This document shows, in pieces, positions 17,140-24,864 of a DNA stretch of 64,000 nt. Source of the stretch: an uncultured Clostridia bacterium (lineage in GTDB: Bacteria; Bacillota; Clostridia; Christensenellales; Borkfalkiaceae); contig CALVHL010000025.1 in assembly GCA_944327625.1 (NCBI GenBank), positions 19,648-83,647 of the forward strand, given 5' to 3'. The notes under the pieces were generated by a model. That model ran no database searches and was not told where the DNA came from. It was given only the letters and a program-made list of their open reading frames with translations. Position numbers and translations under genes: made by a program. Every line of letters starts with the position of its first letter. The stretch's first letter is position 1.

Positions 17140-18105
17140 ATGAATAAAATTACAGTTTGTCCGTCCGATGACATACAGTCTATATTGGATACTCTCACCG
17201 CTCCCGCCACAATATATATGAAAAGCGGCGTATATCGCGCAAAACTTACCGTCAGATGCGACAACGTGAAATTTGTCGGCGAGGACCGTGAAACAACGAA
17301 AATCACCTACGACGACTATGCCCGCAAGCCCCACGCCGACGGCGGCGAATACAACACCTTCCGCACCTATACCGTCTGCGTTACGGGCGAGAACGTCGTA
17401 ATGGAAAACCTGACGATAGAGAACGCCAACACCTCGCCCGAAAAGGTCGGGCAGTGCGTCGCGCTGTCCGTCAACTCAAAGCGCTTCTATGCGCGGCGGC
17501 TCAACCTCGTCTCCACGCAGGATACGCTCTTTACCGCGCCCTTCCCCGACGACCTCGTCATACGCTATTCGGGGCTGACGGACGATCCCGCCTACTACGA
17601 CGGCTTCATTCCCCGCAACCAGCTGTATATGGAGGGCAACTCCGTCCAGATATACGATAGTTGCAGGATATGCGGCACCGTAGACTTCATCTTCGGCGGC
17701 GCGGAGGCGTACTTTTACGACTGCGACATAGTGTCGCTTGCCGACAAGCGCAACTGCGGATACGTAGCCGCCCCCTCCCACTCGCTCAAAGACGAGCGCG
17801 GATATGCCTTCATCGACTGTCGGATAATGACGGAGGGCGCGTCGGAGGGCAGCATCTATCTCGCGCGGCCGTGGAGAGATTTCGGCAAGTGCGATTTCGT
17901 CCGCTGCACCGTTCAACGGCACATATCCCCGCTCCTTTTCGATAAATGGAACGATACTTACCGCGATAAGACGGCGCGTTTCGGCTACTTTGAACTGACG
18001 GGCGCGCCCCTCTCGCCCGTGCCCTGGTCGCATGAACTTTCAGCCCGTGAGGCACAGAATATTATAGAGAATTTCGAGCGGCGCAAAAGGTCGTTTAATG
18101 TATAA
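17140..18105 (+). CDS. pectinesterase (CE8 pectin methylesterase)
   Basis: CE8 motifs STQDTLF, GTVDFIFGG and YLARPW. ATG follows AAAGGAGGA. Confidence 0.9.
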   Translation: MNKITVCPSDDIQSILDTLTAPATIYMKSGVYRAKLTVRCDNVKFVGEDRETTKITYDDYARKPHADGGEYNTFRTYTVCVTGENVVMENLTIENANTSPEKVGQCVALSVNSKRFYARRLNLVSTQDTLFTAPFPDDLVIRYSGLTDDPAYYDGFIPRNQLYMEGNSVQIYDSCRICGTVDFIFGGAEAYFYDCDIVSLADKRNCGYVAAPSHSLKDERGYAFIDCRIMTEGASEGSIYLARPWRDFGKCDFVRCTVQRHISPLLFDKWNDTYRDKTARFGYFELTGAPLSPVPWSHELSAREAQNIIENFERRKRSFNV

Positions 18106-18118
18106 AAAGCACAAAAAA

Positions 18119-18148
18119 ATCAGGGCGGCGAACCGTCCTGATTTTTCT
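18119..18148 (+). terminator. rho-independent terminator of the pectinesterase gene
   Basis: The stem is atcagggcgg-cgaa-ccgtcctgat (one mismatch), followed by ttttt. Confidence 0.7.
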
Positions 18149-18271
18149 TTCGTGATATGGAGGTATGCGGCTTTCGCCGCCCCGTTTGCGTTACCCTCAT
18201 CTTCGGCATCTTTCCCGATGCCCCGATGTCGGATTACCCGTTATTCGTAAGATCTTACATAAGCCTCTAAG

Positions 18272-18623
18272 CTTCCGCGCACTTTGTGTTGCGCCGTGCG
18301 CCGCGCATTTTAAGTCTTAGGCGGAGTGTCCTCCTCAATTTGCCGATGTCTTAAAATTTTTGTTACAAGCCTTCCGCGCACCTTACGCGCCGTGCGCCGC
18401 GCTTACAATTCCTAGGGGGAGTGCCCTCCTTAATTTCAACACGTCCGTAAAATCTGCAACTTTGCTTCCGCGCACCTTATGCGCCGTGCGCCGCGCTTTA
18501 CAGTCTTAGGGGGAGTGTCCTCCTTTACAGGTATTTATTGCTATTATGAAGGTTGCCTCAGAGATACCGCGTACTTAATGCGCTGTACGCCGCGCTTACT
18601 ACTTACGATTGGAGTGTCCTCCT
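18272..18623. repeat. array of four ~60-65-bp structured repeats separated by ~35-bp unique spacers
   Basis: Copies are at 18272-18336, 18371-18430, 18465-18526 and 18565-18623. The core is CTTCCGCGCAC-N-GCGCCGTGCGCCGCG-N-GGAGTGTCCTCCT. It lies in the convergent spacer between the pectinesterase and hsp20 genes. Confidence 0.85.
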
Positions 18624-18648
18624 TTTGTTTATTCTGCCCTTTCTCCCG

Positions 18649-19065
18649 TCACAATATGTCGATGAAGTGGCTCTGAACGCTCTTAGGCTCCGCCTTGGGC
18701 AGTGAGAGGATAAGCATACCGTTGTCATATTTAGCGGTAATCTGTTCCTTGGTGAGTTCCGTGCCTACATAGAAGCTGCGCTGGCAGCTCTCGGTAATCT
18801 CCTTTCTTATGTAGTGCTTACCGCTCTCCTCCTCTTTCTTCTCTTTCTTCGCCGCAACGGTCAGGTATCCGTCGTCTAAGGATACCTTTATCTCATCCTT
18901 GGCGTAGCCCGGGATCTCGACTTCCAGTTCATAGCCCGTGTCTGTTTCCTTGATATTGGTGCGCAGGTCGTGCTGTTCGTCGAAAAATACGGGAGGGAAA
19001 ATGTCGTTGAATGCGTCGAACAGGTCGTAATCTGCGTTATTTCTTGTCTGTAAATACTTTTTCAT
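18649..19065 (-). CDS. Hsp20/alpha-crystallin family small heat-shock protein
   Basis: Alpha-crystallin domain (DIKETDTGYELEVEIPGYAKDEIKVSLDDGYLTVAAKK). The ATG at 19063-19065 follows AAGGAG. The upstream extension in the track is rejected. Confidence 0.85.
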   Translation of the reverse strand: MKKYLQTRNNADYDLFDAFNDIFPPVFFDEQHDLRTNIKETDTGYELEVEIPGYAKDEIKVSLDDGYLTVAAKKEKKEEESGKHYIRKEITESCQRSFYVGTELTKEQITAKYDNGMLILSLPKAEPKSVQSHFIDIL

Positions 19066-19263
19066 GGTCTTAATTCTCCTTGTTATAAAAAATTTATAAC
19101 TCGGGAAGTGGTAACGCCGCACAGGGCTTTCGCCCTTTCGGCTGCCTGCTTTCTTCGTTCACTTTATATATAACACACGAAAGGGCGTTTTAAACGCTTC
19201 GTAAAATATTTTTTAATCGGCGCACCCCTTCGCGGCGGACGATTATATAATAGTGAAAAGAGA

Positions 19264-19296
19264 GCGGCGGCAGAAAAATTTTTTTCTGCCGCCGCG
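19264..19296. terminator. hairpin terminator (usable in both directions) just after the stop of 19301-20695
   Basis: The stem-loop is gcggcggcag-aaaaattttttt-ctgccgccgc, with T-rich runs on both sides. Confidence 0.6.
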
Positions 19297-19300
19297 TTTT

Positions 19301-20695
19301 TTATGTATTTTTACCCTCTTTTTTCTTCTTCTTGCGCAAAATCAGCACGACTGCGAGAATACCGCCGCCGTAGCAGAATACTACCGCGATGAGCATGGGC
19401 AGGAAAATTACGAGAAGCAGCGTCTTTGCCGCCTTGTTCTGCGCCTCGCCCGGAAGATAGCTATAACTCCGGCTTTCGCACAGCGAGAACCGATAGCGCC
19501 CGCTGTTTTCCTCCACCTCGAAGCCGTAGTCGGTCTCCGTCATGTAAGTCGAGGAAATTCCGCCCTTATAATAGTCGGTCTCGACGACCAGCCACATTTC
19601 GCCGCGCACCGCCGCCCACATATCCGTGAGGGGCACGTCGTACCTGTAAACTTTGACGGTCGGCGAATAGCTGTCGTTGATGAAGGGCATTGCGGGCAGT
19701 TCGACCGTGACGTATGCCGACGAATGGGGCGCAACCGTCACTTCAAAGGTGTTCCACATAAAGAACTCCGCATTGCGCAACCCCTTGACCTGCCGCGCGA
19801 GCACGCCGTTGTACCAATCGACCTCGCTTATGTAAGTGCGGTCGCCGCGCAGTCCGTCGACGTACTCGCCGAGCGTATAGCCCTCGCCCGTCATCGTCAC
19901 CTTATACTCGCCGACCTCCGTGTCGACGTAGCCCACGTCTTTCTCGTACTTCTCTATCGTCCATTCGACGGCGGACAGATCGACGGGCTCGCCTATCACG
20001 CACAGCGTCACGCCCTCGCCGTCGTCCACCCCCGTCATTCTGTAACCGTCCTCGACGCGGTTTATATATTCCGTCCAGTACGCCGTCTGGTCGTCGATCG
20101 CGGGCAGAACGCCTTTTATGTAGAACTTTTCGCCCTCGGCGGCGTCGGCTATCGCAAAGTTATACACGGTCACCGCCGCGTCGCGGGTGAATATGCCGTT
20201 CTCGTAATATTCGTCGCTGAGAGATTTTATCTGCTCCGCGTACTCGTAAGACGAATAGCCCTCGGGCGTATAGTTGCCCCCGACGGACAGATAGTTATCA
20301 TAGACGTGCCGCCTCTGCGCCGTCACCGCCACTCCGTCGACAGTCACCGAAGCTACGGGCAATACGCCGTCGTAATACCCGGGCTGACTGCCCGACGGCA
20401 CGGCGAGCTGTTCGGTGACGCTCTCGTCGCCCTGATTGTATAGCGCATACTGAATACTCAAAGTCGACAGATATTTGCCGTCCTCGGCGGGGAAATCGAC
20501 TATGTCGTAGACGACGAGCTGCCCCGTCACCGTGAGGGGCGAACTGCCGTCGCGGACGTATATTCCGCTGTTAATGCTGCCGCTCGTGTACTCGTCGTAA
20601 ATTTCACAGCCCGAAAAGAGCGTTGCCGACAGCGCGAGCGCGATTGCCGCGCCGACTACGCCGACGCGCTTTAATTTAGCCTTATTTATCTTCAA
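19301..20695 (-). CDS. hypothetical surface protein: lipoprotein signal peptide, large ectodomain, C-terminal TM anchor with poly-Lys tail
   Basis: TTG start 5-6 nt after AAGGAGAG. Lipobox LFSGC. C-terminal hydrophobic helix followed by RKKKKKEGKNT. It is a paralog of the next gene. Confidence 0.65.
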   Translation of the reverse strand: MKINKAKLKRVGVVGAAIALALSATLFSGCEIYDEYTSGSINSGIYVRDGSSPLTVTGQLVVYDIVDFPAEDGKYLSTLSIQYALYNQGDESVTEQLAVPSGSQPGYYDGVLPVASVTVDGVAVTAQRRHVYDNYLSVGGNYTPEGYSSYEYAEQIKSLSDEYYENGIFTRDAAVTVYNFAIADAAEGEKFYIKGVLPAIDDQTAYWTEYINRVEDGYRMTGVDDGEGVTLCVIGEPVDLSAVEWTIEKYEKDVGYVDTEVGEYKVTMTGEGYTLGEYVDGLRGDRTYISEVDWYNGVLARQVKGLRNAEFFMWNTFEVTVAPHSSAYVTVELPAMPFINDSYSPTVKVYRYDVPLTDMWAAVRGEMWLVVETDYYKGGISSTYMTETDYGFEVEENSGRYRFSLCESRSYSYLPGEAQNKAAKTLLLVIFLPMLIAVVFCYGGGILAVVLILRKKKKKEGKNT

Positions 20696-24094: not shown

Positions 24095-24864
24095 TTTCGT
24101 AATTTTGTCGCTTAGTGACAGCGACAAAATTGACGAGGCTTAGCGGCTCTGCCGCTCTTGCCGCGACATTTTTTATTGCTCTCGATTATGAGAAGTCGCG
24201 GCAATTCACACCGCTGAGGTCGCAAGCGACTATTTGAGTGCGCTGGCGCAGGGAAACCCTGCTTGCGCCGCTAATTTATGTTTCGTAAATTTGTTTTCTG
24301 GTGACGAAAACAAATTTGACGATTTGAGGGCGTTGCCCTCGGCGGCGCAACCCTCAGCGCTCTCCATTCATTTAGTTGCGCCGCCTTCACCTACTGAGGT
24401 GGCGAAGCCACAAATGTGGTGCGCGGGCGCAAAAGCGTGGTTTTGCTTGCGCCGTTAGTTTTTTGTTTCGTAATTTTGTCGCTTAGTGACAGCGACAAAA
24501 TTGACGAGGCTTAGCGGCTCTGCCGCTCTTGCCGCGACATTTTTTATTGCTCTCGATTATGAGAAGTCGCGGCAATTCACACCGCTGAGGTCGCAAGCGA
24601 CTATTTGAGTGCGCTGGCGCAGGGAAACCCTGCTTGCGCCGCTAATTTATGTTTCGTAAATTTGTTTTCTGGTGACGAAAACAAATTTGACGATTTGAGG
24701 GCGTTGCCCTCGGCGGCGCAACCCTCAGCGCTCTCCATTCATTTAGTTGCTCCGCCTTCACCTACTGCCCGCCCGACGAAGTCGGTCGCACGAAGCGAAA
24801 GCGCAGCAGGTGTAGGTATGCACAAATGATGTGAAAGACCAAAAAGCGTGGTTTTTGGTCTTTC
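24095..24864 (+). repeat. four head-to-tail copies of a ~180-nt multi-hairpin element (E1 24095-24270, E2 24281-24454, E3 24466-24641, E4 24652-24864)
   Basis: 24095-24396 equals 24466-24767 with one mismatch (offset 371 bp). Each copy has the same ordered hairpins, with conserved linkers and different but complementary stems. Details are in the findings. Confidence 0.9.

Follow-up and report, generated by a model that had tools for sequence, protein, structure and literature searches.

The region downstream of hsp20 in the window, a 64,000-nucleotide stretch of DNA from an uncultured Clostridia bacterium, contains four direct repeats, each of which joins a Shine-Dalgarno (SD)-like sequence to a covarying GC-rich hairpin. 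The repeats are under purifying selection, are linked exclusively to the 3' end of hsp20, and are separated from that gene by no terminator. We propose, with a probability of roughly 0.45, that the array serves as an RNA module, specific to its lineage and preserved by selection, in the hsp20 3' untranslated region (3'UTR), where it sets mRNA stability and processing by means of its SDs and hairpins. To our knowledge, functional elements in bacterial 3'UTRs are still few, and we know of orphan SD sequences acting as stabilizers in 5' leaders only. The array would be a multicopy SD-plus-hairpin module that purifying selection has retained in the putative 3'UTR of a stress gene; its stem covaries cleanly, and its putative origin, by insertion, is well defined. 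Such a module would provide a compact case for ribosome binding outside coding regions and for 3' structures shaping mRNA fate in RNase J/Y-type bacteria, although its reach is limited to a handful of uncultured gut species, probably of Candidatus Coproplasma.

Repeat search and MAFFT alignment confirmed four direct repeats at window positions 18272 to 18625, each 61 to 64 nt long, with 70 to 89% identity among the units. The copies lie at 18272-18335, 18371-18431, 18465-18525, and 18564-18624, with a spacing of 99, 94, and 99 nt. A family covariance model scored 64 to 81 bits on these four copies (E values from 1e-18 to 1e-24), and the next-best match in the 64-kb window scored 11 bits. The four structured repeats described in a first-pass annotation of this DNA are therefore real. 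Its starts at 18272, 18371, and 18465 and its periods of 99 and 94 were reproduced, whereas the fourth start is 18564 instead of 18565 and the last period 99 instead of 100, a one-base difference. The three inter-unit spacers (18527-18563, 18433-18464, and 18338-18370; 32 to 37 nt) are mutually unrelated within the window, as had been noted, and comparison across species found them unconserved.

The placement of the array in a convergent spacer was also corroborated, both flanking genes being recognized by Pfam: hsp20 on the minus strand (18649-19065), encoding a small heat-shock protein of 138 amino acids (PF00011, E = 2.8e-19), and a pectinesterase gene on the plus strand (17140-18105). A bidirectional intrinsic terminator at 18115-18146 (stem 18141-18120), an inverted repeat with T runs on both strands, is common to the two genes and adjoins the pectinesterase stop, so the whole array falls between the hsp20 stop codon and the terminator. 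This is the first terminator-like structure 3' of hsp20 on the minus strand; no other minus-strand terminator was found between 18648 and 18147, and thus none inside the array. On the simplest reading of this layout, the array would be transcribed within the hsp20 unit as a 3'UTR of about 530 nt. At the other end, the hsp20 leader and promoter region (19066-19200, minus strand), which is conserved across the genus, is bounded by a second bidirectional terminator at 19264-19295; with the leader and promoter behind this terminator, hsp20 and the array look like a single-gene transcription unit. Beyond the last repeat, the putative 3'UTR continues as a variable purine-rich tail (18147-18271, minus strand), which ends in a CU-rich box, CUCCAUAUCAC (18162-18152, hsp20 strand), immediately before the terminator. 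Every lineage with the array has retained this box. In the types represented by genomes G135 and G163 it reads UUCCUUCUAUAUCAU and forms a local hairpin with an upstream AUAGAA; array-less relatives do not have it.

Written on the minus strand, the consensus unit comprises AAAGGAGG, a 5-nt loop, CCSCCU, and an A-rich linker (AAGAnUnnAAA), followed by a GC core of the form GCGC-N-GCGYAC-R-GCGC-(A-rich 3-8 nt)-GURCGC. Two helices are considered here: P1, between AGGAGG and CCSCCU, and P2, between the two 6-nt arms of the core. Unit 1 (18564-18625, 68.2 bits), which is nearest the hsp20 stop and of a form that we call type I, carries the AGGAGG of AAAGGAGG at 18623-18618, then CCAAUC in place of CCSCCU; its core consists of GCGC (18595-18592), the P2 5' arm GCGUAC (18590-18585), the loop GCGC (18583-18580), and the P2 3' arm GUACGC (18574-18569). 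In unit 2 (18465-18526, 80.7 bits), AGGAGG (18524-18519) can pair with CCCCCU (18513-18508), with an A.C mismatch, and P2 joins GCGCAC (18491-18486) to GUGCGC (18475-18470). The corresponding elements of unit 3 (18371-18432, 75.2 bits) are AGGAGG (18430-18425) with CCCCCU (18419-18414), and GCGCAC (18397-18392) with GUGCGC (18381-18376), the latter helix being extendable by UUGUAAGC/GCUUGUAA. Those of unit 4 (18272-18337, 64.2 bits) are AGGAGG (18335-18330) with CCGCCU (18324-18319), and GCGCAC (18301-18296) with GUGCGC (18282-18277); its P2 loop has 13 nt, against 10 nt in units 1 to 3. Hence, the GCGCAC...GTGCGC stem had been read correctly, and its double change to GCGTAC...GTACGC in the copy next to hsp20 is indeed compensatory. 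The GGAG-TGTC-CTCC hairpin is likewise present, and its minus strand reads AAGGAGGACACTCC, an SD-like sequence.

Related arrays were gathered through Hsp20 homologues and their contigs, and from species genomes. The resulting comparison set held 43 distinct units from about 25 assemblies, 40 of which were parsed in register. AGGAGG is invariant in all 43, usually inside AAAGGAGG, and is kept even in type I units, whose pairing partner is lost. The genome uses SDs of the AGGAGG type (283 with a start codon and an open reading frame behind them). Complementarity was judged against the canonical CCUCCUUU because the 16S rRNA 3' end is absent from the 29-contig assembly. No ATG, GTG, or TTG lies 3 to 12 nt downstream of the SD in any of the 43 units, and periods of 91 to 103 nt together with indels break every reading frame; thus, the units are not genes. 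The only conceivable coding reading depends on AUC, a very rare start codon: in the first unit of four lineages (window 18596-18623), an AUC 8 to 9 nt after the SD opens a frame of 17 to 21 codons (…KR(G/S)VQR…), which is expected by chance (~0.4).

The SD had been described as sequestered in a hairpin, and this holds in part. In units 2 to 4, the predicted pairing of AGGAGG with CCSCCU amounts to about −6 to −7 kcal/mol and has an A.C or A.G mismatch in every case, never A-U, so that a weak hairpin may partly mask the orphan SD. The first unit of each array, on the other hand, has CCAAUC in place of CCSCCU, and its SD is largely open. An RNA thermometer of the ROSE, fourU, or hsp17 type was rejected: no start codon stands behind the SD, and six of the seven units tested show hardly any predicted change in the unpaired probability of the SD from 25 to 55°C.

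Minimum free energy (MFE) z-scores of single copies were not significant relative to shuffled sequences on either strand, so the case for structure rests on comparison between copies and species. Among the 40 register-parsed units, P2 pair 4 takes two forms, U-A (24 units) and C-G (16 units), without a single mismatch or wobble; pair 2 is C-G 36 times and U-A 4 times. Double changes also separate orthologous units of G135 and G163 (unit 4 and unit 3), and unit 4 of metagenomic lineage L131 has its hairpin swapped for ACGCC-GUGA-GGCGU at the same place. Unit variation is located in the predicted loops, and the P2 loop ranges from 8 to 13 nt across the family. On the model-fitted alignment, covariation exceeded that of all shuffles; however, the covariance-model alignment misregisters copies of the unit 3 type and so creates spurious U.G cells, and for this reason we relied on the parsed table. 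By these comparative data, P2 is a covarying hairpin, and the claim that the repeats are structured stands on P2 covariation across copies and species rather than on folding energy. Moreover, the variation in arm spacing and the swapped hairpin point to a single strand that folds and speak against a fixed double-stranded operator. The repeat belongs to no described family: a covariance-model search against Rfam 15, one of the checks that had been suggested, gave no match in 18272-18625 even at E ≤ 10.

The remainder of the GC core is nearly fixed. Variation there is confined to the covarying pair and to one nucleotide on either side of the 5' arm, and both GCGC tetrads are invariant save for one C-to-U change, which would preserve a U.G pair. 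The order of elements (GCGC, 1 nt, 6-nt arm, 1 nt, GCGC, A-rich 3 to 8 nt, 6-nt arm) is such that the GCGC of the P2 loop could pair with the invariant upstream GCGC, in which case a small pseudoknot of the H type would form, its third loop being A rich. The P1 and pseudoknot stems never vary, and covariation neither supports nor refutes them.

Ribosome or 30S binding at an SD without translation stabilizes Firmicute mRNAs, as described for STAB-SD, aprE, and ermC (PMC7509114), and hbs is a precedent for SD-dependent mRNA stabilization (PMC5737220). The units resemble the STAB-SD family (the cry3A STAB-SD and the aprE, gsiB, and hbs leaders) in carrying AAAGGAGG with no start codon at initiation distance, in a host with an RNase J homologue. 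The family members are single elements in 5'UTRs that protect a downstream coding region, whereas the array places two to four copies past the hsp20 stop, outside the 5'UTR location that defines STAB-SD, each with a GC hairpin and partly self-masked. REP elements provide the precedent for GC hairpins that, when located in 3' regions, block 3' exonucleases. In the mechanism that we propose, 30S subunits would dock on the orphan SDs and block RNase J-type 5'-to-3' decay, as with STAB-SD, and the GC hairpins or pseudoknots would block 3'-to-5' exonucleases; the module would in this way set hsp20 mRNA stability and processing and could leave stable SD-bearing fragments of about 60 nt. Tandem exonuclease-resistant structures are familiar from the xrRNAs of flavivirus 3'UTRs, and by analogy only, duplicated compact pseudoknot-type structures could stall a 5'-to-3' exonuclease and leave 3'UTR fragments; the two share no sequence or demonstrated structural relationship, and the pseudoknot of the array is predicted from its invariant GCGC tetrads. 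Given the use of SDs and the RNase J in this genome, together with the 30S/SD and hairpin precedents, a cis-acting 3'UTR module is the best-supported proposal. The comparative data favor the first-pass suggestion of structured RNAs in the hsp20 3' region.

The 3'UTR position of the SDs would be the weak point of the cis proposal, in that known SD stabilizers protect downstream RNA. An SD in the 3'UTR cannot shield the upstream hsp20 coding region from 5'-to-3' decay, which makes a role in trans a serious rival, albeit one that we consider unlikely. Here, the hsp20 3'UTR or its fragments would act as a four-SD decoy, either titrating 30S subunits on heat shock or sponging C-rich anti-SD-type small RNAs (sRNAs). 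The SD-mimic sponge put forward in the first-pass annotation is likewise conceivable. It accounts for the same anatomy as the cis proposal. AGGAGG is invariant even where no intramolecular partner exists, four copies are kept in several lineages, a stable decay intermediate would be expected to have just such an SD on its 5' side and a GC hairpin on its 3' side, and the linked gene belongs to a class, the small heat-shock proteins, that is normally strongly heat induced. Nonetheless, ribosome titration would need very high copy numbers, and no partner sRNA is known. A CsrA-type partner is excluded, and a CsrB/RsmZ-type sponge with it, by the absence of csrA (PF02599) from 10 genomes of the genus, with positive controls.

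Also unlikely is that the array recruits or sequesters 30S subunits, serving either to lower overall translation as a "ribosome sponge" induced by heat or to return subunits to the hsp20 start, the latter as a bacterial counterpart of the viral 3' translation enhancers. In icaR of Staphylococcus aureus, the 3'UTR contains a UCCCC motif that pairs with the SD of the 5'UTR (PMC3868564). The array is comparable in being part of a long bacterial 3'UTR with C-rich anti-SD-like motifs (CUCCSCCU) in a Gram-positive-type genome. It differs in that the C-rich motif stands beside its own SD-like partner within the unit, and inspection revealed no conserved complementarity of the array to the hsp20 leader.

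We used BLAST and the covariance model to search the genome and its relatives, as the first-pass annotation had proposed. The unit occurs at a single locus in the 1.83-Mb genome. Within the genus, the covariance model found the array in 4 of 156 species (G000, G030, G135, and G163), at one locus each, and a sample of 400 genomes from 173 genera of the order (172 others) gave no match beyond the genus itself. Further array-bearing lineages were recovered from metagenomes (L131-134 and L187-190). Counted as minimum estimates, given that short-read assemblies may collapse repeats, there are four units in the window species (three in one strain), two in G030, and four each in its sister lineage L131-134, in the G135 type (11 assemblies), in the G163 type, and in the L187-190 type. 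The weak matches in G121, G101, and G176 (21 to 30 bits) are probably due to chance: on direct reading, those in G121 and G101 are single partial matches, the latter inside an RNase J gene, and the G176 match covers part of the model only. IUPAC scans of public genome and metagenome contigs returned only G030 and chance matches in high-GC contigs, with patterns too strict for the G135 and G163 variants that the covariance model later found. A scan of viral contigs gave only chance GC-rich matches of 16 bits or less, and BLAST against phages and plasmids found nothing.

In all array-bearing lineages, the first unit starts 2 to 25 nt past the hsp20 stop and the first terminator comes only after the last unit. 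In G030 and L131, the convergent neighbor is an AraC-type gene instead of pectinesterase, and the array, the CU-rich box, and the terminator stay with hsp20. A purine-rich, nonrepetitive tail of 300 to 400 nt precedes the terminator in both G030 (contig L018, downstream of unit 2) and L131 (2290-2700; about 400 nt across L131-134). In the nearest array-less relative, whose Hsp20 is 74% identical, the interval from hsp20 to pectinesterase measures only 57 nt and contains a terminator, and other members of the genus have a terminator within about 30 to 150 nt of the hsp20 stop. These arrangements suggest that the array arose by insertion of a ~95-nt unit between the hsp20 stop and the terminator, followed by tandem duplication.

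Across species, the unit cores are 0.81 to 0.90 identical and the spacers at best 0.56 to 0.68, compared with 0.76 to 0.81 for hsp20 at all nucleotide positions and 0.50 to 0.59 at third codon positions. The cores have been conserved while the spacers and hsp20 third positions decayed, which indicates purifying selection on each unit; by this measure, each core is at least as constrained as the adjoining coding sequence. The units are, moreover, orthologous by position, type I always occupying the first place and the unit whose GUAC arm is shifted the third, so concerted evolution does not account for the similarity of the copies. Between species, spacer 1 can be aligned in part, and neighboring spacers in the G135 lineage still share ACGTATCTAAGGCACAATAA. 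Ten assemblies of the window species have the same spacers apart from 3 single-nucleotide polymorphism (SNP) positions, a further strain difference being one SNP in a variable linker column. Strain L121 (3600-3700) has three units owing to a clean 96-nt deletion that created a unit 3/unit 4 hybrid, which shows that copy number can change by unequal recombination between units 3 and 4.

This exact loss of one unit, the two units of G030 versus four in its sister lineage, and the presence of another, dispersed hairpin-repeat family in the same genome would fit a DNA-level or selfish element, that is, a hairpin minisatellite, a MITE- or REP-like insertion, or a set of protein-binding palindromes kept alike by recombination. 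We regard this explanation as improbable. The array occupies a single locus, has no terminal inverted repeats, and holds all its copies in direct orientation. The position-wise orthology described above speaks against concerted evolution, the cores are more conserved than hsp20 itself, base composition is strongly asymmetric, and arm spacing of 8 to 13 nt and the replaced hairpin do not suit a fixed double-stranded DNA operator. REP/BIME elements of enterobacteria share with the array the clustering of GC-rich hairpins in a 3' intergenic region, where they could block 3'-to-5' exonucleases, but they exist in hundreds of dispersed, RAYT-mobilized copies of alternating orientation. The array, in direct orientation, has one locus per genome in four species and in none of the 172 other genera sampled. 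Occurrence at this locus only thus refutes the REP-type cluster (REP, BIME, or REPIN) that had been offered as a possible role. The five-hairpin repeat of the same genome (window 24095-24864) bears no relation to the array units.

The RNA module proposed here would be read on the hsp20 (minus) strand, which we consider likely to be the functional one. Unpaired positions in structured RNAs are typically A rich and U poor. On the hsp20 strand, the predicted unpaired positions are 49% A and 19% U, in a region that is as a whole A rich and T poor on that strand. One U.G pair, in the putative pseudoknot stem, also favors this strand. A consensus scan of 17900-19400 detected no sigma-70-like promoter on either strand. 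The hsp20 strand is therefore favored by the location of the array inside the hsp20 unit, its retention with hsp20 when the other neighbor changes, the absence of plus-strand promoters, the A-rich unpaired composition, and the U.G pair. Watson-Crick covariation is strand neutral, and MFE comparison between the strands was mixed.

That neutrality leaves a slim chance that the plus strand is functional, encoding multicopy sRNAs whose terminal hairpin, with CCUCCUUU as a mimic of the 16S rRNA 3' end, would pair with target SDs, act antisense to the hsp20 3' end, or both. Every unit does end in CCUCCU(U) on that strand, and the terminal hairpin followed by 2 to 4 U's is weakly terminator-like, with two weak matches. 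Tandem units of about 60 to 100 nt with CU-rich motifs complementary to SDs would then recall LhrC1-5 and RoxS/RsaE, which, however, each have their own promoter, a strong terminator, and C-rich motifs in loops, none of which was seen in the array. LhrC-like sRNA genes were rejected in that the consensus scan gave no promoter on either strand and, as terminators, only the two weak plus-strand matches. In particular, neither the spacers nor the upstream region has a promoter-like site, the U tracts are short, and CCUCC sits in a stem instead of a loop. Read on the plus strand, the unpaired positions would be U rich and A poor, atypical for structured RNAs; furthermore, the array lies inside the hsp20 unit, 5' of the hsp20 terminator, and stays there when the gene upstream on the plus strand is replaced.

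Despite regular repeats with unique intervals of about 35 nt, a degenerate or atypical CRISPR or a type III toxin-antitoxin (ToxI-like) array is almost certainly not the explanation: the repeats are 58 to 62 nt and 70 to 89% alike, versus near-identical repeats of about 23 to 55 nt in CRISPR; the spacers are common to ten strains apart from the 3 SNPs, without turnover, and are orthologous between species; Cas1 (PF01867) is absent from G000, G030, G135, and G163, with positive controls; and the terminator and convergent gene behind the array, with no open reading frame between, leave no ToxN-like partner. The first-pass annotation had likewise judged that this is not CRISPR and that cas genes are lacking nearby. 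Its phrase "CRISPR-like spacing" is right as to regularity, but the shared strain spacers, the single locus, and the missing Cas1 identify that spacing as the product of tandem duplication: within each ~95-nt unit, ~60 nt are under constraint, whereas the other ~35 nt drift.

Several other features were observed around these loci and elsewhere in the genomes. The genome has several other AAGGAGG clusters, none with the ~95-nt spacing of the array. The only other periodic one, at C12:23264-23825 on the plus strand, has nine AAGGAGG/GAGGAGG motifs, of which eight recur exactly every 48 nt, and is most likely a 16-codon coding repeat. In L118 (G003:C31, positions ~130-480), unrelated ~90-nt repeats (TCAAGGCTCGCCTTGTTTGATAAGAG...) lie past the hsp20 terminator and before a CobW-like GTPase gene. 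The hsp20 leader (19066-19200, minus strand; also in L161, L162, L018, L131, and L109-L118) contains a palindrome of the GCGTTTAAAACGC type, a TATATA/TATAAT box with AAAGTGAAC behind it, and a box rich in C (CACUUCCCGAG / CCUCCC). A palindrome made up entirely of A and U, GTTATAAATTTTTTATAAC (19100-19082), abuts the hsp20 SD (19081-19076) in G010 and in the lineages with the array, and could be an operator or an RNA thermometer.
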